Shown here: positions 2,323-49,369 of the stretch, piece after piece | Layout: every line of letters starts with the position of its first letter | Numbering within the stretch: position 1 is the first letter of the stretch | NCBI GenBank assembly: GCA_030648035.1 | Contig: JAUSII010000035.1 | Span: 15,611-79,610, forward strand | Direction: 5' to 3' | Length of the DNA: 64,000 nt | DNA from: Deltaproteobacteria bacterium | GTDB taxonomy: Bacteria > UBA10199 > SPLOWO2-01-44-7 | Notes under the pieces: model-generated | Databases searched by the model: none | What the model was told of the DNA's origin: nothing | Seen by the model: only the letters and a program-made list of their open reading frames with translations | Made by a program: the position numbers and the translations under genes

Positions 2323-2334
2323 TGATCCGTATCA
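2323..2334. promoter_or_regulatory. FNR/Crp-type palindrome TGATccgtATCA
   Basis: Exact TGAT-N4-ATCA with a...t flanks, 80 nt upstream of the Cyc2-like ATG. Same motif as sites at 13205, 14433, 18526, 18538 and 47644. Confidence 0.5.
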
Positions 2335-2414
2335 TTGTTGATATAAAAAAAACATGATACCCCGCCCTGGTATTTATAACTCGGCAAACAGATACTAATC
2401 TAGGGGGAGGAAAC

Positions 2415-3689
2415 ATGAAAAAGTTATTAGCGGTTCTTGGAACCGTCATGATGGTCTGGGCAATATTGGGAATTGGCCGTGAGGCACAAGCTGTTTCCCA
2501 GTGGGCACGGAAGTATAAAGTTAATTGTCAGACATGCCACACCGCTTTTCCGCGTCTGACGTATTTCGGCGAGAAGTTTCAAAGAAACGGTTACCAGATG
2601 CCGGATACGGAAGATGGTGATGAGGTGGGGAAGGAAAAAATCGGCGACAATCTTTTTATAGACGTGGTAAATGACTTTTTTGGTGCCCGCATGTCTGTTT
2701 CTCCGGCGACTATCACGACAAACGGATTGAAAGAGCACAATGCGGAAGGGACACTTCGCACAAAACTCAGCTTTGGAACAACGGATTGGCTTCAGTTTTT
2801 CACAGCCGGTAGTGTTTTCAAGGATGCCTCCATCTTTATTGAAACAGAGATTGGCAATACCTCGATCAAGAACAACTGGTTTTATCTGACCTACAACAAC
2901 ATTCTAAAAGGAGAGGGTTTTGGCAATCTGCTCAATTTGCGGGTTGGCAAACTCTCTGTTTTGAACTGGTTTCCGCAAAGCGGTCGTTTGAGAATGATAC
3001 CCAATATCAATATTGAGGGTTTGAATAATGTAAAATCCTCGGGTGGTGCACCCACGACTGTTACAGTTCAGGATCAGGTCAACTTTTCCAGTCCCGAAGC
3101 CGGTCTGGAACTCTTTGGTTATAAGGGACCTTTCCTTTATTCTGCGGGTGTGACCAATGGTGCTGGTATTACGGATGACAACCAATTCAAGAATGTTTTT
3201 GGAACACTTCGCATGGAAACCACGGGTGGGCCCATTGAAGGGAGCTCTGTTGCTGGTTCGGGCTATTGGGGAACGAACACCGGCTATACGGGTCTTTCCA
3301 CTCGCAAGGATCGATTCTGGCGCTGGGGTGCAGCAGCCAATCTTCGCTATAAAAAATGGGATGTTATCGGAAGTTATTTCTTCCAGCACGACAACAACTG
3401 GACATTGGCTTCCACGGGTCCTCTGGTTAACAAAAGCAAGATTCTTTCAGGACAGGTCGGTTATCTGATCGACCCGCTCTGGTTTGCCGCCTTGCAGTAT
3501 GACTATGTGACCGATTCGTTTAAAAACAGCACGACTGTTAATTCAAACTACTATAACAAAGTTTCTCCATCCATCTGGTATATGCCACGCGAGAATATGC
3601 GCATCGGTTTTGTGAATCGTTGGGAGTTGAGAGGAAGACCCGGTGGACGTCAGCAGGAGTTTCTGTTTAACGTCCGGTTCATGTTATAA
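2415..3689 (+). CDS. Cyc2-like fused monoheme cytochrome c-porin (outer-membrane candidate iron oxidase)
   Basis: Signal peptide (MKKLLAVLGTVMMVWAILGIGREAQA). A single N-terminal CQTCH followed by FPRLTYFGEKFQRNGY. About 380 aa of Gly/Tyr/Asn-rich alternating beta-strand sequence ending in RF-ML. GGGGGAGG SD. Architecture matches fused cytochrome-porins. Confidence 0.55.
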   Translation: MKKLLAVLGTVMMVWAILGIGREAQAVSQWARKYKVNCQTCHTAFPRLTYFGEKFQRNGYQMPDTEDGDEVGKEKIGDNLFIDVVNDFFGARMSVSPATITTNGLKEHNAEGTLRTKLSFGTTDWLQFFTAGSVFKDASIFIETEIGNTSIKNNWFYLTYNNILKGEGFGNLLNLRVGKLSVLNWFPQSGRLRMIPNINIEGLNNVKSSGGAPTTVTVQDQVNFSSPEAGLELFGYKGPFLYSAGVTNGAGITDDNQFKNVFGTLRMETTGGPIEGSSVAGSGYWGTNTGYTGLSTRKDRFWRWGAAANLRYKKWDVIGSYFFQHDNNWTLASTGPLVNKSKILSGQVGYLIDPLWFAALQYDYVTDSFKNSTTVNSNYYNKVSPSIWYMPRENMRIGFVNRWELRGRPGGRQQEFLFNVRFML

Positions 3690-3712
3690 GGGTGTTTGAA
3701 TGAGAAGGTTTG

Positions 3713-3756
3713 AAAATCCCCACAGAGGCGTTCTCTGTGGGGATTTTATTTTTTTA
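3713..3756 (+). terminator. Rho-independent terminator after the Cyc2-like gene
   Basis: Perfect 15-bp stem AAAATCCCCACAGAG / CTCTGTGGGGATTTT (3713-3727 / 3733-3747), 5-nt loop, followed by a T-run to 3756. Confidence 0.85.
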
Positions 3757-3822
3757 GAGATCTCTTTTCTGAAAACGCGTCAATCCGAAAGCGTTAAACC
3801 ATAAAAGAAATTTCAAAAGCAC

Positions 3823-3834
3823 TGACCCGTATCA
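3823..3834. promoter_or_regulatory. One-mismatch FNR/Crp-type box TGACccgtATCA
   Basis: 62 nt upstream of the decaheme cytochrome ATG. Same CCGT spacer as the box at 2323. Confidence 0.3.
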
Positions 3835-3896: not shown

Positions 3897-4844
3897 ATGG
3901 GGGAGATGAAAAGGTGTTTCGTTCTTGTTTGCTTGTCTGTTTTCGTTTTTTCGACACAGGGTGCCGCCGCTTCCAATAAAACCAAATCCAAAAAAGTAGC
4001 TGTTTCTTCTTCTCCCTCTGGCCCTGTTATGGTGGGGGATTCCGTCTGTCAAGCCTGCCATCAAGATCAGTTTGTGAAATTCGGAAAAACCTTGATGGGC
4101 AAATATCTTTCCCAGAAGACAAAATCGGGAAATGAATCGTTTTCTTGTGAAACCTGTCACGGCCCCGGCAACCTCCATGCAGAAGCGGGGGGTGGTAGGG
4201 GGGTTGGCGGTCTCATTACGTTTGGCAAGGGGTCCACAACACCGGTTGAAAAACAGAATGCGGTTTGCCTTCAGTGCCATGAACAGGGAGATCGCCTGCT
4301 TTGGAAGGGGAGTTCACATCAGGCCAGGGATGTAGCCTGTACCAGCTGTCACACTGTCATGGAAAAAATATCGCCGCACGCACAGCTCGCCAAAACCAGC
4401 GAGATAGAAACCTGTGGCCAATGTCATGAACAGAAACGGGCACAGCAGATGCGGTTTTCGCACATGCCTGTGCGCGAGGGTAAGATGACCTGCACCAGTT
4501 GCCACAACCCTCATGGCACTCTGACTGAAAAATTGCTGAAGAGCACCTCTGCCAATGAAAACTGCTACAGTTGCCATACGGAAAAACGGGGCCCCTTTCT
4601 CTGGGAACATCCGCCTGTGATGGAAAATTGCATCAACTGCCACGATCCGCACGGCAGTAATCATGAAAAAATGCTCAAGTTGCCCAAACCACGATTGTGT
4701 CAACAGTGCCACGATGAGTCAAGGCACCCGACCAACCCACAAAGCTTGGGCGCAACAAGAACTTTGTTCGGTCGTTCGTGCAGTAACTGCCATTTTAATA
4801 TTCATGGCAGTAATCATCCATCGGGTTCTGCTTTCACCCGGTAG
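3897..4844 (+). CDS. Periplasmic decaheme c-type cytochrome, MtrA/DmsE/PioA/MtoA family
   Basis: Ten CxxCH motifs (CQACH, CETCH, CLQCH, CTSCH, CGQCH, CTSCH, CYSCH, CINCH, CQQCH, CSNCH) in about 315 aa. Signal peptide present. AAGGAGA SD before ATG 3897. A large barrel gene follows directly. Confidence 0.85.
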   Translation: MGEMKRCFVLVCLSVFVFSTQGAAASNKTKSKKVAVSSSPSGPVMVGDSVCQACHQDQFVKFGKTLMGKYLSQKTKSGNESFSCETCHGPGNLHAEAGGGRGVGGLITFGKGSTTPVEKQNAVCLQCHEQGDRLLWKGSSHQARDVACTSCHTVMEKISPHAQLAKTSEIETCGQCHEQKRAQQMRFSHMPVREGKMTCTSCHNPHGTLTEKLLKSTSANENCYSCHTEKRGPFLWEHPPVMENCINCHDPHGSNHEKMLKLPKPRLCQQCHDESRHPTNPQSLGATRTLFGRSCSNCHFNIHGSNHPSGSAFTR

Positions 4845-4853
4845 GAGGGGAAT

Positions 4854-7019
4854 ATGCGATTTTATAAAAAATATTTTTCAGTTCTGTTCTGTCTCGTGGG
4901 GATATTATTTTCTATGAGGGCTACAGCCGGACCAGAAGTGTTTAAAATGAAATCAAGCGGCGAGATCAATGCCGGCGGGAGATTTTACCTTCCCGGCCAG
5001 CTTCCCAGAACCCAGAGAGCGGAGTATGAAGAGTATCGCGATCTGCCCCAGCAGTTTTATCTGGAAAATCTCAATTTGAATCTGGAGAGTAAAGATCAAC
5101 AAAAATATCTCGATATCACAGCTACCGAGGCGGGCGCGCAGGATCAGAATTATTCTTTAACTGCTTCGGAATTGGGCCTTTACCGTTTTGAATTCGAATG
5201 GGATCAGACGCCGCACATCTTCTCCACCGATGGTCGGATGCTCGGCACGACAACAAGTCCCGGCGTCTACACTCTTCCGACGCCGCGCCCCACCGGCAAT
5301 GATTATAATAACGCACCCATTATTGACAAAATTGCCGTCCGCTGGGACACCGCCCGCTTTCTCTTCTCCTACGACCTTGGGAAGTATTGGGATGTCAAAG
5401 GGGAATATAAATGGATTGATAAAAGCGGCGATAGACCGATGGGGATGGCTTTTGGGAGTCCCGGGATTAATTTTCGTGAAATTTTGGAACCGGTGGATCA
5501 GAATGTCCACAATGTCCGCTTCACGGCCGGCATGAAAAAGGAAAAATACCAGCTTCAATTCAGCTATGATTTCTCCCTGTTTCAAAACGCCCTGAATCGC
5601 GTCATTTCGGATAACCCTCTTGCGGCTACCAATGGTGCTTTTGTCCCTTCTGCCACCGGAGGCAACAGTATAGAGGCCAGCGGACAGACCTCTCTGCCGC
5701 CTGGCAACATGGCCAACACTTGGAATTTCGCAGGCGGCGTGAATTTGCCGATGAACACCCGTATTAACAGTTCCTTTTCCTACAGTCTGCGCCAGCAGAA
5801 CGATTCTTTTTTGCCGCACACAAACAACCCCAATATTCCTTCAGGCAATCTGGCTCTCCCAAAATCGGGCTTGGATGGACAAGCGATGACACTACTTTAC
5901 AATTTTAGCGTGACCAACCGCCCTGCCGATAGCGTAAAGCTGACAACAAAGTATCGATATTTTCATTTGAGCGATAGCAGCAACATTTTGACTTTTCCAT
6001 CGCATGTTGTGAATGATCGGACATTGGTGAATAGCAGTCTCACCGCAGAACGATTCCCTTTTGATAAACACAACGCAAGTATGGATGCGCACTTTCAGAT
6101 TTTAGATCCACTGGAAGTTACCGTGGGGATGGGATGGGAACGTTGGGACCGTAGCCCCCAACGTGAAGCCCAGACAACCGACGAATATGCACCTCATATT
6201 TCGATGGATATAACACCGTCCGACTGGACCCTGATGCGCGTCACCTATACTCCTTCAATCAAAACTGTTGCCTATTACAATGTGGAGCTGATTCCGGCTC
6301 AAGAAAAACTGATGCGTAAATTTGACGAAGCCAGTCGCGATCGGCAGAAGGTCGATTTTTTTACCCAGTTCACGCCACTGGATATTTTTCAGATAAGTTT
6401 CAACGGAGGCATCATCAACGATTATTATCGAAACTCGGTTTATGGATTGCAGAACAGTCAAACTTGGTCGGTCGGAACCGATTTAAGCTGGAAACCGTTT
6501 GAACCTCTAACTATTTTTGGAGGTTATGTTCGTGAACAATATTCCGCCAGACAGGCTTCTCAGTATCGTGAACCGACTATTTTGGAGAATACGCGCTATG
6601 CTTGGGTAGCCAACACAAACGACATTATTGATACCGTTCGGGTCGGAGTCGATGTGGAGATTATTCCCAACAAACTGACTTGGAGCGGCAATTGGGATCT
6701 TTCACGCGAATGGAACAGAATGTATGCGAATAATCCGCAAACTCCCACAGGAGGAACGGCGGCGCAGAACGCTTCCGCTACGGCGTCTGATTTTCCGGCG
6801 ATCACCAGCACCCTCAACCGTCTGGAATCTGATTTGCGCTACAATATTAACAAATCATGGAATGCCAAAGTGGCCTATGTATTTGACGATTTTCATATCA
6901 ACGATTTTAGAACCAACGGCCTTTTGCCCGCCACGCAAGGCGATATTTTCTTGGGCAACGAGTTGCTCAACTACGCCGCCCATATGGTCGTGATGACTGT
7001 CGGGTATCGGTTTGATTAA
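4854..7019 (+). CDS. MtrB/PioB/MtoB-family decaheme-associated outer-membrane beta-barrel
   Basis: 721 aa with a signal peptide and Tyr/Asn/Ser/Gly-rich beta-strand periodicity throughout. It starts 10 nt after the decaheme gene, with an AGGAGGGG SD. Confidence 0.75.
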   Translation: MRFYKKYFSVLFCLVGILFSMRATAGPEVFKMKSSGEINAGGRFYLPGQLPRTQRAEYEEYRDLPQQFYLENLNLNLESKDQQKYLDITATEAGAQDQNYSLTASELGLYRFEFEWDQTPHIFSTDGRMLGTTTSPGVYTLPTPRPTGNDYNNAPIIDKIAVRWDTARFLFSYDLGKYWDVKGEYKWIDKSGDRPMGMAFGSPGINFREILEPVDQNVHNVRFTAGMKKEKYQLQFSYDFSLFQNALNRVISDNPLAATNGAFVPSATGGNSIEASGQTSLPPGNMANTWNFAGGVNLPMNTRINSSFSYSLRQQNDSFLPHTNNPNIPSGNLALPKSGLDGQAMTLLYNFSVTNRPADSVKLTTKYRYFHLSDSSNILTFPSHVVNDRTLVNSSLTAERFPFDKHNASMDAHFQILDPLEVTVGMGWERWDRSPQREAQTTDEYAPHISMDITPSDWTLMRVTYTPSIKTVAYYNVELIPAQEKLMRKFDEASRDRQKVDFFTQFTPLDIFQISFNGGIINDYYRNSVYGLQNSQTWSVGTDLSWKPFEPLTIFGGYVREQYSARQASQYREPTILENTRYAWVANTNDIIDTVRVGVDVEIIPNKLTWSGNWDLSREWNRMYANNPQTPTGGTAAQNASATASDFPAITSTLNRLESDLRYNINKSWNAKVAYVFDDFHINDFRTNGLLPATQGDIFLGNELLNYAAHMVVMTVGYRFD

Positions 7020-7825
7020 AGATCTCTTTTCTGAAAGCGTTTTAATCCGAAAAAAGTTGGGATAAAAATCCAGAGTCCCAAGGCTGTAAGGCCCAAAGCC
7101 ATTCCGAAAAAATTGCCGAGATATTTTTGGAAGAGGGCCCCCGAATACCCCATCATGGCGGAGAGGTCTATTTTAAGAAGCAGAATCACCCGTGAAAGAT
7201 CGATTGGATTTAAAAAAGTCATCAACAACATGGGGCCTTCCAAGGGGTAGTCGCCGAAAAGCAGAACAACGCCAAAAACAAGGGCATCATAGAGAATAAA
7301 GAAAAAAAACCAGAGCAATAGCATCCAGCCGAAGACCAATTCTTTTTTACGAACGACATTGACCACCCAAAAAGCGATGCTCAAGAAAACAAAGGTCAAA
7401 AGAACACCCAGCAACAATAGCAGTGTGTAGCTTCCAAAGCCGGTTTGTGAAAGGTTCATTTGTAATAAGGATCCGAGCCCCATTCCCAGCAGAAAACTCA
7501 AACTCAATCCGACCCCAAGGCCGATCCATTTTCCCAAAAAGATATCTCTTCTGGAAATGGGGAGTGAGACCAGCATTTCATGGAAGGGCAGTGATTCAGC
7601 AAAAGAAAGACTTCCGAAGACAAGCGAAAAAAGAGGAACCAAAAGCAAAACAAGATTCAGGAGAGAGGCACTGGCTTGCAGGGGATCCGAAGCACCAATG
7701 TAGGTGATGATGCCGCTGAAAAGAAGAAAAGAGAGGGCATAGATCAGAAGCCATTTGTTGCGGATGTTTTCATAAAATTCAAATAATGCGATGGTCGCCA
7801 AGGGGGTATTAAATATTTTTTTCAT
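7016..7825 (-). CDS. nosY: NosY, ABC-2-type permease of the nos maturation system
   Basis: 269-aa polytopic hydrophobic protein. Last gene of the nos string, overlapping nosF by 17 nt. Confidence 0.75.
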   Translation of the reverse strand: MKKIFNTPLATIALFEFYENIRNKWLLIYALSFLLFSGIITYIGASDPLQASASLLNLVLLLVPLFSLVFGSLSFAESLPFHEMLVSLPISRRDIFLGKWIGLGVGLSLSFLLGMGLGSLLQMNLSQTGFGSYTLLLLLGVLLTFVFLSIAFWVVNVVRKKELVFGWMLLLWFFFFILYDALVFGVVLLFGDYPLEGPMLLMTFLNPIDLSRVILLLKIDLSAMMGYSGALFQKYLGNFFGMALGLTALGLWIFIPTFFGLKRFQKRDL

Positions 7826-8537
7826 GATTTTTGGTCGTATTCCAAAATTGGTTGAGTGCTTCTTCCAGTGATGTTGTGTTTTTCTGTTTTTTCAACGCGG
7901 CAGGGGAAATGATAGTATAGACTTTTCCCTCCACCAGCAGGGCCATCTCATCAGCCATGGCGTCGACCTCAGCCATGACATGCGAGGTGAACAAAATAGT
8001 ATTTCCAACCTTCTTTTTTTCACAGATCAGTTGTTTGAGGTAATAAGCCACCTGGGGATCGAGGCCAGAAGTCGGTTCATCGAGAATGAAGAGGGAACTG
8101 TCGAACATGAAACATTGCAGGATGTTGATCTTCTGGGCCATGCCGCCGGAGAGTTCGCCAAAGACCTGATTCCAAAAAAGATTGATTTCCAGATCTTGAA
8201 TGAGCTGGTTTTTGTACAGCCCTTCTTTGTGCCGCAGTTTTTCAAAAAGGGTGATCAACTCTTTAACTTTGATGTGAGGAGGAAATTTCAGAAGTTGAGG
8301 CATATATCCCACCTCGGCTTTGAATCGGTTTGTGCCGACGATCGATTCACCGTTCCAAATGATTTCGGCATTTTTGGATGGCCTGACAATTTCCAATATC
8401 GATTTTAAAATAGTCGTCTTTCCAGAGCCGTTTGGCCCTAAAAGGGCAAAAATATTTCCGCCGGAAATCGTCAGATCGATCTGGTCCAGAATTTTATGGC
8501 CGTTATAACTTTTGCTTAAGTTTTTAATTGTAATCAT
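7809..8537 (-). CDS. nosF: NosF, ABC ATPase
   Basis: Walker A GPNGSGKTT, signature LSGGMAQK, Walker B LFILDEPTSGLD. ATGA overlap with the nosD stop. Confidence 0.85.
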   Translation of the reverse strand: MITIKNLSKSYNGHKILDQIDLTISGGNIFALLGPNGSGKTTILKSILEIVRPSKNAEIIWNGESIVGTNRFKAEVGYMPQLLKFPPHIKVKELITLFEKLRHKEGLYKNQLIQDLEINLFWNQVFGELSGGMAQKINILQCFMFDSSLFILDEPTSGLDPQVAYYLKQLICEKKKVGNTILFTSHVMAEVDAMADEMALLVEGKVYTIISPAALKKQKNTTSLEEALNQFWNTTKNHEKNI

Positions 8538-9784
8538 TTTATCGCCAGAATGGGTTTCATACTTGGAGTTTTGTCTTCCAATGTTTCAGGAGTTAACACA
8601 GGAAATACACGTTCCGCTACATTCAAAAATTCAATAATGGGGGAAGCCAGCAGGGCCACCAGCTCCGGGTAATGATTGATCCAGACGCTGAAAGCTCCCA
8701 TGGGTCGAAAAGGGATGTCGCCTTGCCCGTCGCGATTCAAATCATAGCCCTTGTAGTCGCTCCAATAATTAAATTCAAAGATGTTTAATGGACTTTTAGC
8801 GTTGGTGGAAACATCAAAGTAGTTCGATACGAAATTATTTTTGGTAAAACGATTGGTTTCGGAGTTTCCCAAAATATTGATGGCCCACCCGTTGGCGACA
8901 AAATCATTTCCACTGAAGGTGATGCGGCTGATTTCATCGGCAAAAAGGCCAACGGTGTTTCCGTAGAATGTATTGTCCTTCACGATGCTGTCGCTAATGT
9001 CTTTTAACAAAAGACCATAGGAAGTTCTCCCCCAGCTTTTTTCAAAACGGTTGCCGATCATCTCCACTCCGCGGGAATACATGACGGCAACGCCGGTCTG
9101 ATTTTTGCTGAAGGTGTTGTTTAAATAGCGGTTGCGATGGGAATACATGAAGTGGAGCCCATAGCGGATGTTAAGGCGGCTTATGTTGGATTCAATCAGG
9201 GAATCTCCACTGAATTCTATATAAATGCCATCCCGGTGGTTTTCAAAAAGATTGTTCCTGATGGTGATATTTTTTGAAGACCATAGATGAACGCCGTTAC
9301 CGCCGGAAACCTCACTTAAGGCATTGCCGTGGGCTTTGTTCCCCTCAACCCGGCAGGTATCCACCTTTGCCAGATAGATGGAATAGGTGTTGTTTTCAAA
9401 CCGGTTATTTTGAAGGGTGCAATTTTTGGCTTCTTCCGCACGAATGCCGGCGAATTCAGCAATATAACTTGCGCCACTGTTTTGAATGACAAAGCCTTCT
9501 ATCGTTACAGTGTCAGCGCGTATCCAGAAAACATTTCCTTCCTTGAGGCCATCGACAATGGGGATGCCGATGCCAACCAGATGCAGGGGTTTGCGAATGA
9601 CCACGGTCCCCTCCCGATATTCGCCTGTATGCACCCGAAGAGTATCGCCCTCTTTGGCCTGTTCAACAGCCTGACGGATAGAGCGAATGGGACAGGCAGG
9701 ACAAACCTCCAATATCGCAGCACTGCCGGGTAGGGTTAAAAATAAAAACCCGAAGAGCGTCATGAAAGACAAAAATAGTTTCAT
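8534..9784 (-). CDS. nosD: NosD, periplasmic parallel beta-helix copper-insertion accessory protein
   Basis: Signal peptide and repeated beta-helix turns (NNRFENNTYSIYL, GNKAHGN, IRNNLFENHRDGIY, NNTFSKNQTGVAV, DNTFYGNTVGLF). ATG 9784 overlaps the nosL stop (ATGA). Confidence 0.8.
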   Translation of the reverse strand: MKLFLSFMTLFGFLFLTLPGSAAILEVCPACPIRSIRQAVEQAKEGDTLRVHTGEYREGTVVIRKPLHLVGIGIPIVDGLKEGNVFWIRADTVTIEGFVIQNSGASYIAEFAGIRAEEAKNCTLQNNRFENNTYSIYLAKVDTCRVEGNKAHGNALSEVSGGNGVHLWSSKNITIRNNLFENHRDGIYIEFSGDSLIESNISRLNIRYGLHFMYSHRNRYLNNTFSKNQTGVAVMYSRGVEMIGNRFEKSWGRTSYGLLLKDISDSIVKDNTFYGNTVGLFADEISRITFSGNDFVANGWAINILGNSETNRFTKNNFVSNYFDVSTNAKSPLNIFEFNYWSDYKGYDLNRDGQGDIPFRPMGAFSVWINHYPELVALLASPIIEFLNVAERVFPVLTPETLEDKTPSMKPILAIK

Positions 9785-10206
9785 GGATTGTTTGGATGTA
9801 TCCATTCGCCGCCCGATCCCTTTTGGGCTTGCGTAAAATCTTCCATGCTGGAGTAGGCGGAAAGATATCCACCCATGGGAGAGGGGATGTTTTTACTTTT
9901 GAGAATAAACGCCTTTTCCAACCGGATCCATTTTTCGGGATGCAAAAAATCAGTCACCCAGCGGCTCTGAATCTCTTTCGAATGCTGAACAGCCCATTCA
10001 AACAGACATTCGATGGAATCAAAGAAATGGGGTTTTCCCTTGAGAGAAAGAATCTGTGTTTTGAAACGCATCTCTACAATCCCCATCTTGCAATGTTCAC
10101 AGAGGTGTTCGTTTGCCCGGATGTCGACCGGTTGTGAGCGGCCGCAGGCGGTAAACAGAAAGACCATCAAGAACAAGAGGATCGATTTTTTTAAAATGAG
10201 TTTCAC
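9781..10206 (-). CDS. nosL: NosL copper-chaperone lipoprotein
   Basis: Lipobox LFTAC, CEHCKM metal motif and SPMGG motif. The GTG start overlaps the nosB stop (GTGA). Confidence 0.7.
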   Translation of the reverse strand: MKLILKKSILLFLMVFLFTACGRSQPVDIRANEHLCEHCKMGIVEMRFKTQILSLKGKPHFFDSIECLFEWAVQHSKEIQSRWVTDFLHPEKWIRLEKAFILKSKNIPSPMGGYLSAYSSMEDFTQAQKGSGGEWIHPNNP

Positions 10207-10790
10207 GCCCTCTTTTTAAATCTTTCTGAATAAAGAATGTAGGATAAAATTATCCCGATGAGTAGAAGCGAAATTCCTCCGATATGGGGCCAACTGCAAG
10301 ATTCGATATTGAGGATCTGTTTGCATCCGAGGATGGGCGGCTGGTAGGCCATTCCTGGAATCGAGATGGGGGCTTCCGGGTTGAGATTGTGACCGTAGTT
10401 GTATTCCCATCTCCAAAAATCATAAAAACCGGCGGTGCCGACCAGGGCCAGATTAATCAATCCTGCCCAGACCAGAAAACGGCGCGGCCACAAAAAAGTC
10501 ACGAGAGCCCCTGCAATCATATAACCCAGGAGATAGGGCATGAACTGCAGTTCGGGTATCGATTCCTCCACAATCGGGGCCATGCCGATGTAGTGGTTCA
10601 GAATGTTGATGTTCTTGAGATCGAATTGCGCATGTCCGGTAATTTTGTTGACCCAGATATGCATTCCCATCCCCTCCGGATATTGCGGAGCGACGAGGCG
10701 AATAGACCAGAGCGGAGTAAAACAGGCCGCGATCAGTAATAGACCGACCAAAAGGACAAGAAACCGGTTTGGGGTCGAAAGTTTTTTCAC
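10203..10790 (-). CDS. nosB: NosB-like integral membrane protein (the gene found directly downstream of clade II nosZ)
   Basis: Several hydrophobic helices (FLVLLVGLLLIAACF, YLLGYMIAGALVTFLW, LINLALVGTAGFY, ISLLLIGIILSYILY). A GTG at 10790 overlaps the nosZ stop codon (10790-10792) by 1 nt; the track ATG at 10853 would overlap nosZ by 64 nt. Confidence 0.5.
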   Translation of the reverse strand: MKKLSTPNRFLVLLVGLLLIAACFTPLWSIRLVAPQYPEGMGMHIWVNKITGHAQFDLKNINILNHYIGMAPIVEESIPELQFMPYLLGYMIAGALVTFLWPRRFLVWAGLINLALVGTAGFYDFWRWEYNYGHNLNPEAPISIPGMAYQPPILGCKQILNIESCSWPHIGGISLLLIGIILSYILYSERFKKRA

Positions 10791-12697
10791 TATGGAGTCA
10801 CGCGCAAATATTGTTGCATCTCCTGATGCAAGGCCGAACAAAAATCGGTGCAATAAAAGGGGAAAATGCCCACTTTTTTTGCATCAAACCGGAGTGTCTT
10901 GGTTTGTCCCGGCATGAGAAGAATATTGGGTGTGTTGGCCCCCTGAACGGCAAAACCGTGATCGATATCGTAATCCTGTTCGAGATTGGTGATGTGAAAA
11001 AAGACAGTGTCGCCTACTTTTGCTTCCACCACATCGGGTTTGAAGTGCGAACGGATGGAGGTCATGTAGACATCGACCACATTTCCGTTACGAACCACTT
11101 TGGCATCATCCTCTTTTTTGGTGGCGAAAACATTTTGATTCTCTTCCAGAGAATAAATTTTCTGTGCCTTCTCAGCCAGCAAGCTGGCTGGAACGCCTTG
11201 TGCATAGTGCGGTTCTCCAACCATCGGAAAATCGAGAAGCATCTTCATTTTGGAGCCGCTGATGTCGTACAATTGGGCGCTTTGGCTGACTGCGGGACCG
11301 ACAGGAAGATAGCGATCCTTCGTGATTTTATTCAGAGAGAGCATGTATTTCGGAAAGGGTTTGGCTGAATCACCGCCGGCAATACTCAAATGGCCAATGC
11401 TGTAATAGGCTGGAACGCGATCAACCACTTCCCAGCTTCCCAGTTTCCATTTGATGATTTCTGAGCTGATGAAACACGAGGTGTAGGCATAACCTTTGCC
11501 GTCAAATTCGGTATGCAATGGTCCCAGGCACGGTTTTTGGACTTCACCGGCTAGAGTCGATTCATATTTTAATACCGGTATTCCGTCGATTTCTTTGATG
11601 ACATTGGTTTTATCCTCAATGGCTTTAAGCATTTTTTTAAAAGAGTGGACTGGAATAACAGTGGCCAGCTTGCCGCCGCCCACGATGTATTCGCCAGTCG
11701 GGTCGACATCGGAGCCGTGCGGGCTTTTGGGTGTGGGTAAATAATAGAGAACGCCGGAACAATCTTTGGGATCCAGCATTTTTACACCGCTTCTTTTTTC
11801 GGAGACGGTCGCATTATTTTCCGGATTGAAGTTGTTGTAGTAGGTGCCAGAAAAATCTTTGGCCTTGCCCTGGTCGATGCACTGCTTGGCCCGCACCCAG
11901 TTGAAGGCGGCAATGTAATCTTTGTCGTTCTTGGAGGCTTCAATCTCGAGCATTTTATAAGCCTGTTCGGTATTGTAGGTGCTGAAAAAACACCAGTCGT
12001 GCGACGGCCCTTTGCCGCAATGGGCGATGTCGTAATCAAAGCCAGGAACTATAATCTGTCCGTCAATGGACAAACGACCTGTTTGGGGATCGACTTTAAC
12101 CAATGTGATCGTTCCCTTGAAGGCCCCTTTTTCGGCATCCGCAACGGGAATGTCTCTTTGTGGAATGGGGACAGAAAAACGGGTGGTCGCCATCAGATAT
12201 TCGGTATTTTCAGTCAAAAAGGGAGAGGCATGATTGCCGGCGCTGTTGGGGATCTCGATAATTTCAGCCGTCTCGAATGTTTTGAGATCGAGGCGCGCAA
12301 TGCGCGGCGTGTTATTGCCGTTTATGAAAAGCCATCGACCATCTTGTACCCCTTTGGTGAGAGAGACTTCCGGGTGGTGGGCATCGTCCCACGGGACAAA
12401 ACCGTGGGAGGTCATCAGCATGTTTTTGGATTCTTCATCATACCCATAGCCGCTTTCCGGAAACTGTGAAAACACGGGGATGATTTTAAGCAACCGGGCC
12501 GAGGGGATTCCATAAACAGAAACTTGTCCGCTGTAGCCGCCTGACATAAACCAGTAGAATTCGTCTTTTTCGCCGGGTGCCACATAAACTCTTTGTGCGG
12601 CATCGCCCGCCAGAACATTTACAGCCTTGTTTCCCTTGCCGCAGGCAAGGCCTGTGGCTAAAGGCAAAATCAACAAAAAACCAAAAATGTTTTTCAT
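10790..12697 (-). CDS. nosZ: Nitrous-oxide reductase NosZ, Sec-type (clade II)
   Basis: 635 aa. The N-terminal signal has no twin-arginine (MKNIFGFLLILPLATGLACG). C-terminal CuA motif CTDFCSALHQEM follows DIDHGFAVQG. Followed by nosB-L-D-F-Y. Confidence 0.9.
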   Translation of the reverse strand: MKNIFGFLLILPLATGLACGKGNKAVNVLAGDAAQRVYVAPGEKDEFYWFMSGGYSGQVSVYGIPSARLLKIIPVFSQFPESGYGYDEESKNMLMTSHGFVPWDDAHHPEVSLTKGVQDGRWLFINGNNTPRIARLDLKTFETAEIIEIPNSAGNHASPFLTENTEYLMATTRFSVPIPQRDIPVADAEKGAFKGTITLVKVDPQTGRLSIDGQIIVPGFDYDIAHCGKGPSHDWCFFSTYNTEQAYKMLEIEASKNDKDYIAAFNWVRAKQCIDQGKAKDFSGTYYNNFNPENNATVSEKRSGVKMLDPKDCSGVLYYLPTPKSPHGSDVDPTGEYIVGGGKLATVIPVHSFKKMLKAIEDKTNVIKEIDGIPVLKYESTLAGEVQKPCLGPLHTEFDGKGYAYTSCFISSEIIKWKLGSWEVVDRVPAYYSIGHLSIAGGDSAKPFPKYMLSLNKITKDRYLPVGPAVSQSAQLYDISGSKMKMLLDFPMVGEPHYAQGVPASLLAEKAQKIYSLEENQNVFATKKEDDAKVVRNGNVVDVYMTSIRSHFKPDVVEAKVGDTVFFHITNLEQDYDIDHGFAVQGANTPNILLMPGQTKTLRFDAKKVGIFPFYCTDFCSALHQEMQQYLRVTP

Positions 12698-12712
12698 GGG
12701 CTCTCCTTAAAT

Positions 12713-13150
12713 TTATTTTGCGCCGTCGTTCTGCCGGAAATATTCCAGAATAGAACGGGCCTCTTCTTGCGTTACATTTTGAAAGGTCATTTGCGTAAAA
12801 TGAGTGGCCAACAGCTCTCTGGCGACAGGGTCTTTCTCTGTCATCTCCTGCGGGTTCAGGATCATGTTCATGATCCACTCCGGGGTGCGTCTTTGTGTGA
12901 CTCCTTTGATGGCGGGCCCCACGTATTTTTCACTCAATTTATGGCAGGCACTGCATTTGTTTTGAAATAGTTGCTGGCCTTTGGCCGCCAATGTCACATC
13001 CATTGGTCCGACGGTCATACTTTGAACCGGGCCGACCCCTTTGTTGCTCGCCGCTTCAGGCGCCGCCTCTTTTTTGCCACTGCAAGCGGTAAAGTTTAAA
13101 GCAACAAGAGCTAAAACTAAAATAGAAAAAGAACGAGTGGGTTTAAGCAT
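12713..13150 (-). CDS. Monoheme c-type cytochrome lipoprotein, likely electron donor to NosZ
   Basis: Lipobox NFTAC, a single CSACH, and distal Met candidates (MNMILNPQEM). AAGGAGA SD before ATG 13150. Sits 15 nt upstream of nosZ. Confidence 0.7.
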   Translation of the reverse strand: MLKPTRSFSILVLALVALNFTACSGKKEAAPEAASNKGVGPVQSMTVGPMDVTLAAKGQQLFQNKCSACHKLSEKYVGPAIKGVTQRRTPEWIMNMILNPQEMTEKDPVARELLATHFTQMTFQNVTQEEARSILEYFRQNDGAK

Positions 13151-13204: not shown

Positions 13205-13216
13205 TGATCTACATCA
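13205..13216. promoter_or_regulatory. FNR/Dnr/NnrR-type palindrome TGATctacATCA
   Basis: Exact palindromic arms with a...t flanks, centred in the 119-nt divergent gap. It lies about 54 nt from both the cyt c/nosZ operon start (13150) and the nnrS start (13270). Confidence 0.6.
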
Positions 13217-14432: not shown

Positions 14433-14444
14433 TGATTTGCATCA
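14433..14444. promoter_or_regulatory. FNR/Crp-type palindrome TGATttgcATCA
   Basis: Exact motif 26 nt upstream of the fnr/crp-1 ATG. The position suggests autoregulation. Confidence 0.5.
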
Positions 14445-18525: not shown

Positions 18526-18549
18526 TGATGTGTATCATGATTTATATCA
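18526..18549. promoter_or_regulatory. Two abutting FNR/Crp-type boxes, TGATgtgtATCA followed by TGATttatATCA
   Basis: Two exact motifs back to back in the 108-nt divergent gap between hemY (start 18486) and the giant cytochrome (start 18595). A perfect TATAAT lies at 18574-18579, 33 nt from the centre of box 2. Confidence 0.6.
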
Positions 18550-18594
18550 TTGGTAATATGATGAGTCTCTCCTTATAATGAGGGCGGTCAATTT

Positions 18595-42688: not shown

Positions 42689-42814
42689 GGTGTAGGAGAC
42701 CCTAGCACCAAGCCTTTGGTCGCCATATGACACGGATCAGCCAAAGAACTGACGTGCGTCATTAGAAAAAAATAGAAAAATGGGTAGATCCAAATTTGAA
42801 AATGGAGGAACGAT

Positions 42815-46261: not shown

Positions 46262-46362
46262 GGGGAAATAGTGTAATATATGAGCAATATCATTGTTTGT
46301 TTGCCAAAATAATATATGAGTGTCGCAGTAGAGGGTGTTCCAAAAACTCAAAGGAGGAAGTC

Positions 46363-46642: not shown

Positions 46643-47677
46643 ATGAGGTTAATGGTATTAGGCTTGAATCACAAGACAGCCTCCATCGCCGATCGAGAGC
46701 GGTGGGGGCTCTCTTCTTTTGGGGTTCCACTATTTTTAAAAGAAATTCTCAAAATACCTTCTGTGTGCGGGGCCGTCTATGTGGCCACATGCAATCGGGT
46801 GGAGTTTTATCTTTCCGTGGAAAAAGAGTTTTCCATTTCCAGTGTGATAGAACTTTGGAAAGCGGAACCCTCTTACGTTTATGGAGGCGAACAGGCATTC
46901 AGCCATCTGTTGCGGGTGGCAGCCGGGCTTGATTCTCTGGTGTTGGGTGAAAATCAGGTCATGGGGCAGATCAAACAGGCCTACCTGCAATCGGTTGAAA
47001 TCAAAACGGCCGATGCTCTCATACACTTTGCTTTTCAGCGCGCACTGAACGTGGCCAAAAAAATTCGAACGGAAACCGGTATTGCCAAATCGCCAACCTC
47101 GGTCAGTTCTGTCGCCGTCATGTTGATAGAACAGATTTTTGGTGATTTTTCAAAGCTGAAAACGCTCGTGGTGGGGACGGGTGAAACCGGTTCGCAGACG
47201 GCCGAGCTTTTGGTAAAACGGGGTGTGAAAAATTTGATCGTTGCGAACCGCACACTGTGTGCCGCAGAAACTTTGGCCGCGTCTCTGAAAGCCTCGGTTT
47301 GTCCCTTTGAAGAATTGGAAAAGGCCTTGGCCCTCTCCGACATGGTCATTACGGCGACTGCGTCTTCAACGCCGATTATTTTCAAAGAGATGTTTTTGAG
47401 AAAAAACTCACCGACTGTTCTGGTCGATCTGGGTGTTCCGCGCGATGTGGACCCGGAGGTGGGGAATGCAGAGGGCATTTATCTCTACAACGTCGATGAT
47501 TTAAAAACCATTGCCGACAAGAATCGTGTTTTTAGAACGCAGGAGGCAATGCTTGCCGAAAAAATTGTCAGTTATGCCGCAGAATCGTTTCAGATGGAGT
47601 GGAAAAAAAGAAGTCGACGCATGATGGATATCAGTATCCTGCCTGATTCAGATCATTTGGGATGGCAAAAAAGTTGA
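46643..47677 (+). CDS. hemA: Glutamyl-tRNA reductase
   Basis: MRLMVLGLNHKTASIADRE N-terminus, catalytic-Cys region ATCNRVEFY, and NADPH fold VVGTGETGSQTA. Confidence 0.85.
   Translation: MRLMVLGLNHKTASIADRERWGLSSFGVPLFLKEILKIPSVCGAVYVATCNRVEFYLSVEKEFSISSVIELWKAEPSYVYGGEQAFSHLLRVAAGLDSLVLGENQVMGQIKQAYLQSVEIKTADALIHFAFQRALNVAKKIRTETGIAKSPTSVSSVAVMLIEQIFGDFSKLKTLVVGTGETGSQTAELLVKRGVKNLIVANRTLCAAETLAASLKASVCPFEELEKALALSDMVITATASSTPIIFKEMFLRKNSPTVLVDLGVPRDVDPEVGNAEGIYLYNVDDLKTIADKNRVFRTQEAMLAEKIVSYAAESFQMEWKKRSRRMMDISILPDSDHLGWQKS
47644..47655. promoter_or_regulatory. FNR/Crp-type palindrome TGATtcagATCA
   Basis: Exact motif inside the last codons of hemA, 35 nt upstream of the fnr/crp-2 ATG. 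This parallels the box upstream of paralog 1. Confidence 0.45.
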
Positions 47678-47690
47678 TTATGAATACTGC

Positions 47691-48413
47691 ATGTCGAAAC
47701 CCTCCTTTTTTCATTGCAAGGAATGCACTTCGAAAGAGGGAAGCGTCTTTTGCGATCTCAAAGAGGCCCAGCTCGATATTATGGATGAGGCCAAGATATG
47801 TAATGTTTACAGGCCCCATCAGATGATTTTTTATGAAGGGAATCTGCCGTACGGTCTCTACTGCATTGTCTCTGGAAAAGTAAAAATCTATAAAATGGAC
47901 AAAGAGGGTCACCAGCACATTGTGCGTTTGCTGGGGCCGGGTGAGATGGTTGGCTATCGCTGTCTCTTGGCGAATGAACCCTACTCTGCCACGGCGGAGA
48001 CTTTGGAAGAGACGCAAGTCTGTTTTATCGACAAAAAAAGTCTGTTTCATATTTTGGAGAGCCATCCTGCCACCGCTTTCCATGTGATGTGTTCCTTGGC
48101 CAAAGATCTGGGCAAGGCCGAATATCAAATGGTCAACATCGTACACAAAAATATTCGTGAAAGATTGGCGGAGCTGTTGCTTGTTTTTCTCAAAAAATAT
48201 GGAAAAAAAGAAGAAAAGGGTATTCGATTGAATATCTCTCTCACGCGCGAAGAGATGGCGGAGCTTATCGGCAGCACGCAGGAGTCGGTCATTCGTCTCA
48301 TGAGTGAATTTAAACAGGATGGTATCATTGCCGTGGATGGACGCAGTATCACGATTTTGAATGCCGAAAAACTCGTCAAAACGGCTAATGTTTCCGACGG
48401 CTCCACTGCATAA
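47691..48413 (+). CDS. Crp/Fnr-family transcription regulator, paralog 2
   Basis: 153 of 236 positions (about 65%) are identical to the 14471-15181 protein in an ungapped hand alignment. Same N-terminal C-x2-C-x8-C cluster (CKECTSKEGSVFC) and HTH (REEMAELIGSTQESVIRLMSEF). Confidence 0.8.
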   Translation: MSKPSFFHCKECTSKEGSVFCDLKEAQLDIMDEAKICNVYRPHQMIFYEGNLPYGLYCIVSGKVKIYKMDKEGHQHIVRLLGPGEMVGYRCLLANEPYSATAETLEETQVCFIDKKSLFHILESHPATAFHVMCSLAKDLGKAEYQMVNIVHKNIRERLAELLLVFLKKYGKKEEKGIRLNISLTREEMAELIGSTQESVIRLMSEFKQDGIIAVDGRSITILNAEKLVKTANVSDGSTA

Positions 48414-48774
48414 TGGTGTAGATTAAAAAAAGACCACCGCCGAGCAGGATAAGCAGAGGCAAAACCCAGATGGTCAGATTCATTCCCTTCGGCTTGGGTT
48501 CCAGCAAAATCCATTCGCCATAACGGTCAACAAAGTAGTTGAGAATTTGTTCTTCGCTTTCTCCCTGTTCCAGTTTTTCACGGACTGTTTTTGTCATGTT
48601 CTGGGCCAGTTCAGATGGGGAATCGGAGACCGGAATGCCGCGGCAGACGGGACAACGCAGTTGATCGGCGATTTGACGAGCACGCTGGTCGATGGAATCA
48701 ACGCCCAGCGCCAAACGTCCGACGCCTAAAAAAATTCCAAAACAGAAAACAAAAAATAACAGGGTTTTATTCAT
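48385..48774 (-). CDS. ccmH: Cytochrome c maturation protein CcmH
   Basis: Signal sequence, LRCPVCRG motif and C-terminal TM helix. The ATG overlaps the ccmG stop (ATGAATAA). The 3' end overlaps the convergent fnr/crp-2 by 29 nt. Confidence 0.8.
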   Translation of the reverse strand: MNKTLLFFVFCFGIFLGVGRLALGVDSIDQRARQIADQLRCPVCRGIPVSDSPSELAQNMTKTVREKLEQGESEEQILNYFVDRYGEWILLEPKPKGMNLTIWVLPLLILLGGGLFLIYTIMQWSRRKH

Positions 48775-49282
48775 GGAGCCCTTGCCCAATCTTTCTTTCC
48801 AGGTAATCGGCGGTCATGATGCCGGAAAATTTGTCATAAATTGTTCCGTGGGAATCAATAAAAAAAGTTTCCGGAACGCCGCCAACGCCGTAATCGATTG
48901 CCGTTTTACTCTCTTTATCCGTAAGGACCGTAAACGGTTCTCCATATTCTTTCAGGAATCTCTGTACAGATTCTTTTTTGTCCTGATAGACAACCCCCAA
49001 AAACACAACACCCTCTTTTTCATAAATTTTACGGCCTTCGTTGAAAATTTTGTGTTCCATAAGACAGGGGCCGCACCAGGTGGCCCAAAAATTCAGGACC
49101 ACAGGATGTCCCTCAAACGATTTCAGGGAGATTTCTTTACCCTCCAGCGTTTTAAGGGAAAAATCGGGGGCTTTTTTGCCGGTCATGGTGGAGGGAAGCT
49201 CTCTGGCATCGCGGGTCAAACCAAAAGCAAGGAGTGCCAGAATCGGAACAACAATGACAAAAAATAAAATCCAGCGTTTCAT
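48767..49282 (-). CDS. ccmG: Thiol:disulfide oxidoreductase CcmG/DsbE (TlpA family)
   Basis: N-terminal anchor helix and thioredoxin motif NFWATWCGPC. ATG 49282; the 115 upstream codons of the track ORF are not credible. Confidence 0.8.
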   Translation of the reverse strand: MKRWILFFVIVVPILALLAFGLTRDARELPSTMTGKKAPDFSLKTLEGKEISLKSFEGHPVVLNFWATWCGPCLMEHKIFNEGRKIYEKEGVVFLGVVYQDKKESVQRFLKEYGEPFTVLTDKESKTAIDYGVGGVPETFFIDSHGTIYDKFSGIMTADYLERKIGQGLHE

Positions 49283-49369
49283 GGGGCGTTTTATATGCCT
49301 GATCGGCATCTTGGTAAAGTTGTTTTTATGGACTTCTGCGAGGGGGATTGTTATGAATGCGCCCATCCC

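Follow-up and report, generated by a model that had tools for sequence, protein, structure and literature searches.

A recurrent TGAT-N4-ATCA box and two Crp/Fnr-family regulators suggest an FNR-type regulon in a Deltaproteobacteria bacterium

The window analysed here, a 64-kb stretch of DNA (64,000 nucleotides), holds a Cyc2-like gene, nos genes, nnrS, haem genes, multihaem cytochrome operons and two Crp/Fnr-family regulators, raising the question of whether a palindromic box recurring before these genes is the operator of a common regulon, and of which type. The original prediction had proposed a Fnr/Dnr-type regulon from six exact TGAT-N4-ATCA 12-mers and two one-mismatch copies. All eight were found where it had placed them, and its box-to-ATG distances of 80, 26 and 35 nt for the Cyc2-like gene, fnr1 and fnr2 are correct. 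The count, however, was incomplete, as exact boxes at 13293, 18714 and 47622 had been missed.

Abundance and placement of the box

A full scan of the window yields nine exact boxes versus 1.41 expected (sd 1.3), a number reached in 0 of 100 dinucleotide shuffles of the whole window. Intergenic DNA, amounting to 2.7 kb or about 4% of the window after correction of gene starts, contains five of them (2323, 13205, 14433, 18526 and 18538) versus 0.055 expected, and 0 of 2000 intergenic shuffles reached five. The other four (13293, 18714, 47622 and 47644) lie within ORFs yet are promoter-adjacent, and all nine are less than 130 nt from a start codon. Of the six copies originally listed, five are intergenic and one, 47644, lies in the 3' end of hemA, before fnr2. 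The comparison of coding with intergenic background that the prediction had called for reveals enrichment at promoters, and the full window scan detected no exact box deep within coding DNA, so the objection that coding DNA holds the motif just as often fails.

One-mismatch boxes number 51 in the window, with three intergenic versus 1.2 expected (p ~0.13); refining the gene starts raises the intergenic count to five (p ~0.009), the intervals having been chosen post hoc. They are weaker evidence than the exact boxes, and the predicted mtoA and hemN copies, although correctly located, are not individually significant. Related loci, which are metagenomic and were selected by the regulator protein only, contain 96 boxes across 851 kb, 61 of them in the 9.7% outside ORFs, with 19 deep in ORFs against a chance estimate of about 15.

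These counts bear on whether the recurrence is chance or a composition artefact of AT-rich intergenic DNA. Intergenic DNA is slightly richer in AT than the window overall (GC 45% vs ~48%), and one or two exact boxes per 64 kb are expected, but no shuffle reached the observed counts, box positions are kept in orthologous promoters, and the constant 22-nt pairing described below is not producible by composition. Shuffles, orthologue conservation, pairing and related-loci counts have effectively refuted this reading.

Table 1. Boxes and associated features of the window (exact boxes match TGAT-N4-ATCA)
Feature	Position	Strand	Remarks
Degenerate box TAAAACAGATCA, 2 mismatches	2301..2312	.	22 nt upstream of cyc2 box; weak alone
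Exact box TGATCCGTATCA	2323..2334	.	centre 86.5 nt 5' of Cyc2-like ATG
Cyc2-like fused monohaem cytochrome-porin	2415..3689	+	signal peptide, one CQTCH, 424 aa
One-mismatch box TGACCCGTATCA	3823..3834	.	68.5 nt before mtoA ATG (3897), past cyc2 terminator
mtoA-like decahaem cytochrome (10 CXXCH) + MtrB/PioB-type porin	3897..7019	+	domain and motif scan
nos cluster	7016..13150	-	cytochrome c, nosZ, 216-aa protein, nosL, nosD, nosF, nosY
Exact box TGATCTACATCA	13205..13216	.	within 119-nt divergent nos/nnrS gap
nnrS	13270..14430	+	start moved to ATG 13270, GGAG ribosome-binding site
Exact box	13293..13304	.	nnrS codons 8-12, 28 nt into gene; 88 nt from gap box
Exact box TGATTTGCATCA	14433..14444	.	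centre 32.5 nt before fnr1 ATG
fnr1	14471..15181	+	Crp/Fnr-family regulator, 236 aa; Cys9, 12, 21, 111; helix TQESVIR
Exact box TGATGTGTATCA	18526..18537	.	45.5 nt from minus-strand operon ATG (18486)
Exact box TGATTTATATCA	18538..18549	.	abuts box 18526; 51.5 nt before multihaem lipoprotein ATG
Predicted sigma-70-type promoter TTGGTA-18 nt-TATAAT	18550..18579	+	10/12 matches, consensus scan only
Cytochrome operon	18595..26055	+	829-aa lipoprotein (13 CXXCH), further multihaem cytochromes, cytochrome b/c fusion
Exact box	18714..18725	.	lipoprotein cytochrome gene codons 40-44, 124 nt inside
One-mismatch box TGAGCAACATCA	29431..29442	.	between 101-aa gene and ACIII-like multihaem/Fe-S/NrfD operon
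Variant boxes TGACACGGATCA + TGACGTGCGTCA, 22 nt apart	42728..42761	.	divergent ApbE-rnf / 2-oxoacid:ferredoxin oxidoreductase (OFOR) promoter region
One-mismatch box TGAGCAATATCA	46281..46292	.	upstream of monohaem cytochrome c-hemA-(fnr2) row
Exact boxes 47622-47633 + 47644-47655, 22 nt apart	47622..47655	.	last 56 nt of hemA
fnr2	47691..48413	+	paralogue, 240 aa, 65% identity to fnr1; cysteines and recognition helix as in fnr1
One-mismatch box TGATCGGCATCT	49300..49311	.	between thioredoxin-like (CcmG/ResA-type) gene and hemN
hemN, oxygen-independent coproporphyrinogen III oxidase	49370..50749	+	TIGR00538, 560 bits

The two regulators and the shape of the box

Both regulators combine the N-terminal cNMP-type beta-roll and C-terminal Crp-type HTH of the Crp/Fnr superfamily, with cNMP_binding (PF00027) at 3.6e-23 and 1.7e-23 and HTH_Crp_2 (PF13545) at 2.3e-16 and 2.7e-18, all over the Pfam cut-offs. 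The top NCBIfam model is Fnr for both, with FnrL also among the best, at 97.8 and 93.9 bits, below the Fnr cut-off (PRK11161, 228 bits). Each has the FNR pattern of three N-terminal cysteines and one central cysteine; C9, C12 and C111 of fnr1 align with C20, C23 and C122 of E. coli FNR, and the third, C21, lies three residues past the C29 position in the alignment. The four cysteines are invariant in 19 homologues, in which the helix Glu and Arg are also invariant or nearly so. This cysteine set favours an Fe-S FNR type over a haem-based Dnr/NnrR type, and structure-sequence matches are ~1e-18 for FNR chains vs 5e-11 for DNR (3dkw). The third cysteine is absent in several distant family members, so Fe-S sensing is not certain. 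The original Fnr/Dnr-type assignment accordingly divides: the FNR family is supported by promoter enrichment, regulator features and conservation, while the cysteines disfavour the Dnr/NnrR type.

The main FNR-box contacts are Glu209, Ser212 and Arg213 (PMC4505428). In fnr1, E198 and R202 align with E209 and R213, and I201 with S212, giving a helix E-S-V-I-R in place of the E. coli-type E-x-x-S-R; E-x-x-I-R occurs in 78 of the 78 related loci analysed. The outer base of the box, A in 63%, C in 26% and T in 7% of 27 sites, matches the Ile in place of Ser212, a substitution that would account for the lack of selection for T at the outer position, where the classical half-site TTGAT has it. The predicted TTGAT-N4-ATCAA geometry therefore holds for the TGAT-N4-ATCA core and spacing, but not for the outer base, which is A or C in 89% of sites.

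Box pairs are found at exactly 22 nt in 13 cases, and no other spacing between 12 and 70 nt is seen more than twice. Many promoters of this family have such a partner box at exactly 22 bp, roughly two turns of the helix, and this spacing suggests two dimers on the same DNA face.

Target promoters and their conservation

The (A/C)TGAT-N4-ATCA(T/G) box is likely the operator through which fnr1 and fnr2 control an FNR-type regulon, and the best reading of the regulon is an Fe-S, FNR-type low-oxygen one rather than Dnr/NnrR. At low oxygen, a [4Fe-4S] cluster on the four conserved cysteines would promote dimerisation of Fnr1 and Fnr2, Glu and Arg, both conserved in the recognition helix, would contact the box, and boxes near -41.5 would activate, the clearest case being the multihaem cytochrome operon. 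The analysis shows the enrichment, the positions and conservation of the box and the sequence features of both regulators; that the proteins bind it, that they sense oxygen, whether they activate or repress, and where transcription starts are what we infer from the sequence, and the true binder could be another Crp/Fnr paralogue encoded outside the window.

Putative targets that are well supported include the Cyc2-like gene, fnr1, fnr2 and the divergent nos operon/nnrS. A Pfam search with the Cyc2-like protein returned no match. Its exact box, whose distal-partner arrangement recurs in loci L004 and L092, is found 70-87 nt upstream of five of seven Cyc2-like orthologues amid diverged surrounding DNA (loci with the exact box: L004, L092, L095 and L096). 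The box at 13205 lies 60.5 nt from the ATG of the nos-operon cytochrome c (13150) and 59.5 nt from that of nnrS (13270); the box at 13293 is possibly an auxiliary site or chance. The Sec/lipoprotein-type signal of nosZ marks it as clade II-like. The box before fnr1 is too near the ATG for class II activation and is probably autoregulatory, and at fnr2 the distance from box centre to ATG is 63.5 nt for 47622 and 41.5 nt for 47644. At least 14 related loci carry a box upstream of fnr orthologues (L002, L005, L007, L008, L017, L018, L020, L022, L026, L029, L056, L060, L079 and L088).

Also well supported are the divergent units on either side of boxes 18526 and 18538, namely the multihaem cytochrome operon and a minus-strand operon encoding amine-oxidase/HemY-like, NrfH-like octahaem and dihaem cytochrome c (with EB_dh domain) proteins. 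The box at 18538 adjoins the predicted -35 element, and the predicted promoter places it at about -41.5 to -42.5, a geometry derived from consensus scans that are uninformative at most promoters. With boxes 18526 and 18538 set 12 bp apart, two dimers are probably unable to bind both at once. A DtxR-like gene is located at 26056-26793.

Candidate targets comprise mtoAB and hemN/ccmG, together with three that go beyond the original prediction: the ACIII-like operon, ApbE-rnf/OFOR and cytochrome c-hemA. The mtoA box shares the 8-mer CCGTATCA with the cyc2 box, and the mtoA and hemN one-mismatch boxes are plausible regulon members. The thioredoxin-like gene facing hemN is on the minus strand (ATG 49282), and start codon candidates for hemN are 49295, 49328 and 49370. 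An exact box occupies the equivalent position at the ACIII-like operon in L093 and L094, and the homologous ApbE/OFOR site in L088 has an exact box with a 22-nt partner. Three loci, L004, L007 and L060, have a box at haem units (hemN or hemA), and in the latter two hemN belongs to divergent units under box control; moaA-moaC directly following fnr is preceded by a box in L002, L004 and L005.

The box is thus conserved at fnr, cyc2-like, ACIII-like, ApbE/OFOR and haem genes. Conservation upstream of orthologues stands for fnr, cyc2-like and haem genes but not for nnrS in most relatives: the box was not found at nnrS orthologues in L084-L087, L090 and L091, and among the relatives checked a single one retains the link to nnrS, L088, where an fnr-nnrS operon lies behind a box.

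Alternative readings and known systems

The operators could be real while the regulators are NO sensors of the Dnr/NnrR/Nss type, responding to NO or N2O rather than oxygen. The box is centred between nnrS and nos, classical NO-regulon genes, and NO is a further reactant of Fe-S clusters of the FNR type. Nss-type Crp/Fnr boxes have been proposed at Campylobacterota clade II nos genes (PMC11539149). We consider this account unlikely, as the FNR set C-x2-C...C plus central Cys is invariant across homologues of both proteins, the FNR chains fit better than DNR, Fnr and FnrL lead the NCBIfam matches, and the conserved targets moaA, hemN and fnr are typical low-oxygen genes. Dnr and NnrR are not known to carry the FNR cysteines, which are present and invariant here.

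Alternatively, the box might be bound by a factor encoded elsewhere or be a promoter element peculiar to this lineage, in which case it would lie near the two Crp/Fnr genes by coincidence. The pairing of box and regulator is drawn from sequence and binding is putative, the canonical outer T/A is absent, and the view of the genome is limited to 64 kb. Yet dozens of independent metagenomic loci have the box directly before the regulator gene or closely following it, the 4-4-4 geometry and TGA/TCA core of the box correspond to the contacts of the conserved FNR-family Glu and Arg, and no other regulator is consistently linked to it; the DtxR-like regulator is expected to use a different, longer palindrome. 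This makes the alternative very unlikely, and an FNR-type regulon remains the preferred reading.

A bolder and rather doubtful extension is that a single FNR switch, of the low-oxygen (or NO-reactive) kind, induces an Fe(II)-oxidation/electron-uptake apparatus together with the clade II nitrous-oxide reductase, acting through a distinct Ile-helix FNR subfamily and 22-bp dimer pairs. The apparatus would comprise Cyc2, MtoAB, large multihaem cytochromes and cytochrome b/c and ACIII-like complexes for outer-membrane electron uptake. If true, an uncultured groundwater lineage would be wired for extracellular iron oxidation coupled to anoxic N2O respiration.

Among known systems, the regulators resemble E. 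coli FNR and Pseudomonas ANR in the Crp/Fnr fold, the cysteine arrangement and the helix Glu/Arg, with a box sharing the 5-4-5 palindrome geometry and TGAT/ATCA core of the FNR box, and with hemN, moaA, respiratory cytochromes and their own gene as putative targets of the typical kind. Several paralogues per genome also occur in P. putida (PMC4505428). They differ from E. coli FNR in being 25% identical and under the NCBIfam Fnr cut-off, in the third cysteine spacing (C-x8-C vs C-x5-C), in Ile for Ser212 with an A/C rather than T outer base, and in the frequent second box exactly 22 bp away. The best solved-structure match, the Porphyromonas gingivalis Crp/Fnr regulator PDB 2GAU (4e-27, in an alignment beginning at residue 39 with the N-terminal cysteine region outside it), shares the x-x-I-R helix end but lacks the helix Glu (SNAIR vs ESVIR).

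FixK is not known to carry Fe-S cysteines and is placed under FixLJ. In Rhodopseudomonas palustris TIE-1 it regulates pioABC (PMC3050613), similarly joining low-oxygen signalling through a Crp/Fnr regulator to a module for Fe(II) oxidation at the outer membrane, and PioAB and the mtoAB-like genes of the window share the decahaem plus MtrB/PioB-porin type. Among iron-oxidation targets in the window, by contrast, the Cyc2-like gene has the best support, and mtoAB-like genes have only a one-mismatch box. Dnr, NnrR and Nss regulators respond to NO or N2O and are not known to have the FNR cysteine cluster, and FNR-like palindromes also precede nnrS in these systems. They resemble the present case as Crp/Fnr-family regulators with FNR-like palindromes before nos genes, the consensus searched at clade II nos genes being TTGA-N6-TCAA with mismatches allowed (PMC11539149), and differ in that the FNR cysteines are invariant here. 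The kind of regulon is already known, and the result is solid and unsurprising.

Distribution of the box in the window

The palindrome TGAT-N4-ATCA, referred to here as the box, occurs nine times in the 64-kb window against 1.41 expected (sd 1.3) in a full scan with dinucleotide-preserving shuffles, and none of 100 whole-window shuffles reached nine. The original prediction listed six exact and two one-mismatch copies, with coordinates and distances that were all correct; its exact list was incomplete, the boxes at 13293, 18714 and 47622 (named by first nucleotide) having been overlooked. With start codons corrected, mainly nnrS to 13270, preceded by a GGAG ribosome-binding site, and the nos cytochrome c gene to 13150, intergenic DNA makes up 2.7 kb (4.3%) of the window and contains five exact boxes against 0.055 expected, a count reached in 0 of 2000 shuffles. 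The remaining four lie within ORFs, every one adjoining a promoter. No copy in the window lies deep in coding DNA, and the proposed regulon thus survives the objection that its motif might be equally frequent there. An extra 3 kb of contig to the right of the window held no box; the contig is present in sample SRR13727527.

One-mismatch copies number 51 in the window, so any single copy proves little. Three were intergenic against 1.2 expected (p about 0.13); refined starts gave five (3823, 29431, 42728, 46281 and 49300) against 1.2 (p about 0.009, with intervals set post hoc). Positional conservation supports 29431 and 42728 as putative sites, and 3823 (mtoA) and 49300 (hemN/ccmG) are candidates by analogy only. 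The copies at 29431-29442 (TGAGCAACATCA) and 46281-46292 (TGAGCAATATCA) are nearly identical, each intergenic and ahead of a cytochrome gene.

Gene context was assigned from Pfam, NCBIfam and sequence reading. The terminator between the Cyc2-like gene and mtoA is strong, with a 16-bp stem and a T-run, indicating that the two iron-oxidation modules are separate transcription units. NosZ looks clade II-like because its leader is of the Sec/lipoprotein type (MKNIFGFLLILPLATGLAC), not twin-arginine; no nosR was seen. This clade II-like nos organisation occurs in a genome also carrying Cyc2 and MtoAB. A DtxR-type repressor fused to a FeoA domain adjoins feoAB, and the same trio lies directly 3' of the Cyc2-like gene in a related metagenomic locus (L096 5290-8110), making iron uptake genes neighbours of a putative iron-oxidation gene. 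The minus-strand ORF 45098-46351 was rejected as spurious, the real gene being the OFOR (2-oxoacid:ferredoxin oxidoreductase) beta subunit at 45173-46261 on the plus strand. HemA, the glutamyl-tRNA reductase (46586-47677), has only 363 aa and no match to the C-terminal dimerisation domain. Possible hemN starts are 49295, 49328 and 49370; translation from 49295 would give the longest form, with a Cys-rich N-terminal extension (MDFCEGDCYECAHP), and the one-mismatch box would then fall within the gene. An Rfam search of the whole window matched no RNA family, so its intergenic regions contain no known riboswitches or sRNAs.

Features of the window and of related metagenomic loci (L handles; coordinates within each locus)
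Feature	Locus	Position	Remark
Cyc2-like fused monohaem cytochrome-porin	window		ahead of terminator
Intrinsic terminator	window	3713-3747
MtoA-like decahaem cytochrome, MtrB/PioB porin	window		after terminator
nosZ (nos cluster)	window	10790-12697	minus strand
Monohaem cytochrome c gene (nos cluster)	window	12713-13150	minus strand, precedes nosZ
nnrS, fnr1	window
Box 13293	window		inside nnrS, 28 nt in
Amine-oxidase/HemY-like protein, NrfH-like octahaem cytochrome, dihaem cytochrome c with EB_dh domain	window		minus-strand operon
829-aa lipoprotein with 13 CXXCH (first gene) to cytochrome b/c fusion (last)	window		plus-strand operon
Box 18714	window		inside multihaem lipoprotein gene, 124 nt in
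DtxR-FeoA regulator, feoAB	window	26056-28990
ACIII-like multihaem/Fe-S/NrfD operon	window
Malic enzyme, two OFORs, rnf, ApbE	window
Cytochrome c-hemA-fnr2; CcmG-like thioredoxin; hemN; ccmABCDEF; aconitase	window
Thioredoxin-like gene	window	start 49282
Boxes 47622, 47644	window		last 56 nt of hemA; 63.5, 41.5 nt ahead of fnr2 ATG
22-nt pair	window	47622-47655	fnr2
22-nt pair	L004	3924-3957
22-nt pair	L092	3903-3936
22-nt pair	L032	11168-11201
22-nt pair	L074	4589-4622
22-nt pairs	L088	272-305; 6605-6638
22-nt pair	L002	245-278
22-nt pair	L007	8083-8116
Small cNMP-like protein	L004	6439-6825
Small cNMP-like protein	L007	7756-8046
Small cNMP-like protein	L008	3335-3757
Small cNMP-like protein	L014	10737-11063
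Small cNMP-like protein	L015	10757-11146
Small cNMP-like protein	L032	10772-11158

Regulators and the identity of the box

Fnr1 and Fnr2, the paralogous Crp/Fnr-family regulators of the window, share 65% identity; Fnr and FnrL are the curated models that match them best, with scores far under the cut-offs. Alignment to E. coli FNR matches C9, C12 and C111 to C20, C23 and C122, places C21 three residues beyond C29 of E. coli FNR, and matches E198 and R202 to E209 and R213, and I201 to S212. The residues that contact the FNR box are E209, S212 and R213 (PMC4505428). All 19 homologues keep the four cysteines, the Glu and the Arg, and the Ile is almost invariant; the E-x-x-I-R helix was present in 78 of 78 related regulator loci analysed, a biased sample in that the retrieval pattern contained this helix. 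The named homologues belong to uncultured groundwater 'Deltaproteobacteria' MAGs. A scan of genome contigs with Fnr1 gave two loci only, one of which, from a distant Bacteroidales, was left out.

An Fnr/Dnr-type regulon had been proposed, and its FNR-family part is upheld; the Dnr/NnrR side is less favoured, given that the cysteine set is that of an Fe-S FNR type, and Fe-S oxygen sensing by Fnr1 and Fnr2 is predicted with moderate confidence. In 27 sites pooled from the window and closer relatives, the core is immediately flanked by A (63%), C (26%) or T (7%), with an A-rich tract further out, so the site reads (A/C)TGAT-N4-ATCA(T/G) and not TTGAT-N4-ATCAA. The geometry first suggested is retained in its TGAT-N4-ATCA core, with A or C in place of the outer T. 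Ser212 of FNR reportedly reads the outer T, according to mutant work by Spiro and Guest, and the A/C outer base would fit the loss of Ser212 in the window regulators. Fur and DtxR boxes were rejected as alternative identities, their known consensus geometry being unlike TGAT-N4-ATCA. A literature text search found no paper on a short core written TGAT-N4-ATCA or TGATNNNNATCA. Judged from sequence, TGAT-N4-ATCA is predicted with high confidence to be an FNR-family operator of a regulon.

Conservation and promoter layout

Regulator loci of relatives were retrieved with the regulator protein as sole criterion. In 12 distinct loci (L002, L005, L007, L008, L017, L018, L020, L022, L026, L029, L056 and L079) the fnr orthologue has an exact box 57-121 nt ahead of it; the distance is 18 nt in L060 and 27.5 nt in L088, in which fnr and nnrS form an overlapping operon. 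In the syntenic relative L004 (53-76% protein identity), boxes 108 and 86 nt ahead of the Cyc2-like orthologue form a 22-nt pair. Among six further Cyc2-like orthologue loci, an exact box lies 70.5-71.5 nt upstream in L092, L095 and L096, and a degenerate TGTT..ATCA takes its place in L093 and L094. In the alignment of Cyc2-like upstream regions (mean column identity 43%), conservation falls mainly on the box and the ribosome-binding site. The cyc2 box of L096 sits in the 3' end of hemA, as the fnr2 boxes do in the window hemA.

Further boxes lie in the gaps that separate the orthologue of the 101-aa gene from the ACIII-like operon (L093, L094), OFOR from ApbE (L088) and hemN from fnr (L060), and ahead of a small cNMP-domain gene followed by hemA (L004) or hemN (L007). 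Directly 3' of the fnr stop codon, a box precedes moaA-moaC, identified from N-terminal sequences only, in L002 (10818-12036), L004 (10719-12034) and L005 (1194-2383); the window fnr genes have no moa genes behind them. Small proteins of about 95-140 aa with a cNMP-binding-like domain only adjoin boxes and regulator genes in relatives, sometimes heading hemA/hemN operons; none was seen in the window. Non-redundant related loci totalling 851 kb contain 96 exact boxes: 61 in the 9.7% outside ORFs, 16 no more than 130 nt from an ORF end and 19 deep in ORFs, the last being about our own chance estimate. Orthologues of nnrS speak against conservation: no box was found in L084-L087, L090 and L091, and only L088 among the fetched nnrS loci keeps the link; the nnrS of L084 and L085 comes from a MAG, RIFCSPLOWO2_01_44_7, that encodes the regulator as well. 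Membership of nnrS is therefore not general, being either window-specific or plastic.

Pairing was searched for each exact box with a partner of at most one mismatch 12-70 nt away. Thirteen pairs have exactly 22 nt centre to centre, against at most two at any other spacing and our own chance estimate of about 0.2 pairs per spacing. At -22 nt from the cyc2 box and from the nos/nnrS box lies a partner with two mismatches, and variant boxes form a pair at 42728/42750. As 22 bp is about two helical turns, such an arrangement would place two dimers on one DNA face. TGAG half-sites recur as 22-nt partners in L007 and L041. The boxes 13205/13293 are 88 nt apart (4 x 22), as is a pair at 11082/11170 in L056, and 18538/18714 are 176 nt apart (8 x 22), which may be coincidence or phased auxiliary sites.

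The abutting boxes 18526 and 18538, 12 bp apart, more likely serve two divergent promoters separately. A predicted promoter, TTGGTA-18-TATAAT at 18550-18579, puts box 18538 at about -41.5 to -42.5. No obvious ribosome-binding site precedes the HemY-like gene on the minus strand (ATG 18486), which has a box 45.5 nt away. Consensus promoter scans at cyc2, mtoA, nos/nnrS, fnr1, fnr2 and hemN gave nothing usable. The fnr1 box, only 32.5 nt from the ATG, is too near for class II activation (box near -41.5), which suggests autoregulation; E. coli fnr is autoregulated. A perfect 11-nt direct repeat (TCCGAAAATAA, 2.1 copies, 14409-14431) abuts the fnr1 box (14433) and may serve as a further operator or as an UP-like element. 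No Shine-Dalgarno sequence is present between the proximal fnr2 box, centred 41.5 nt from the ATG, and the fnr2 ATG (47644-47693); fnr2 may have a class II promoter and be transcribed as a leaderless mRNA.

Significance and comparison with known systems

One oxygen-sensitive switch appears to be common to the Cyc2-type iron oxidase, large extracellular-type cytochromes and the clade II N2O reductase, and would predict when iron oxidation and N2O reduction run in aquifers. For an uncultured groundwater lineage of 'Deltaproteobacteria', the analysis yields a regulatory map that can be tested, and it describes a widespread FNR subfamily in which the helix has Ile for Ser, the outer base is shifted to match and double boxes keep a fixed 22-bp spacing, features that could serve regulon prediction in many metagenome-assembled genomes.

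FNR boxes ahead of anaerobic respiration and haem genes are a textbook principle; less expected are the conserved predicted control of a Cyc2-type iron oxidase, the putative co-regulation of N2O reductase and the 22-bp double boxes. To our knowledge, a fixed 22-nt double operator is not typical of E. coli FNR promoters, and no Cyc2-type gene has previously been reported to be under the control of an FNR-family regulator; among the papers listed by a literature search on cyc2, FNR and iron oxidation, none dealt with control of cyc2 by FNR. The nearest precedent for such control is FixK, which controls pioABC (PMC3050613). Crp/Fnr boxes have been proposed at clade II nos genes (PMC11539149), and several FNR paralogues can occur in one cell (PMC4505428). 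By analogy, the window system would work like E. coli FNR or Pseudomonas ANR, but it lacks strict FNR features, namely Ser212 (Ile here), the outer T of the box and a score above the curated model cut-off, and is best described, on these predicted features, as a distinct FNR subfamily.
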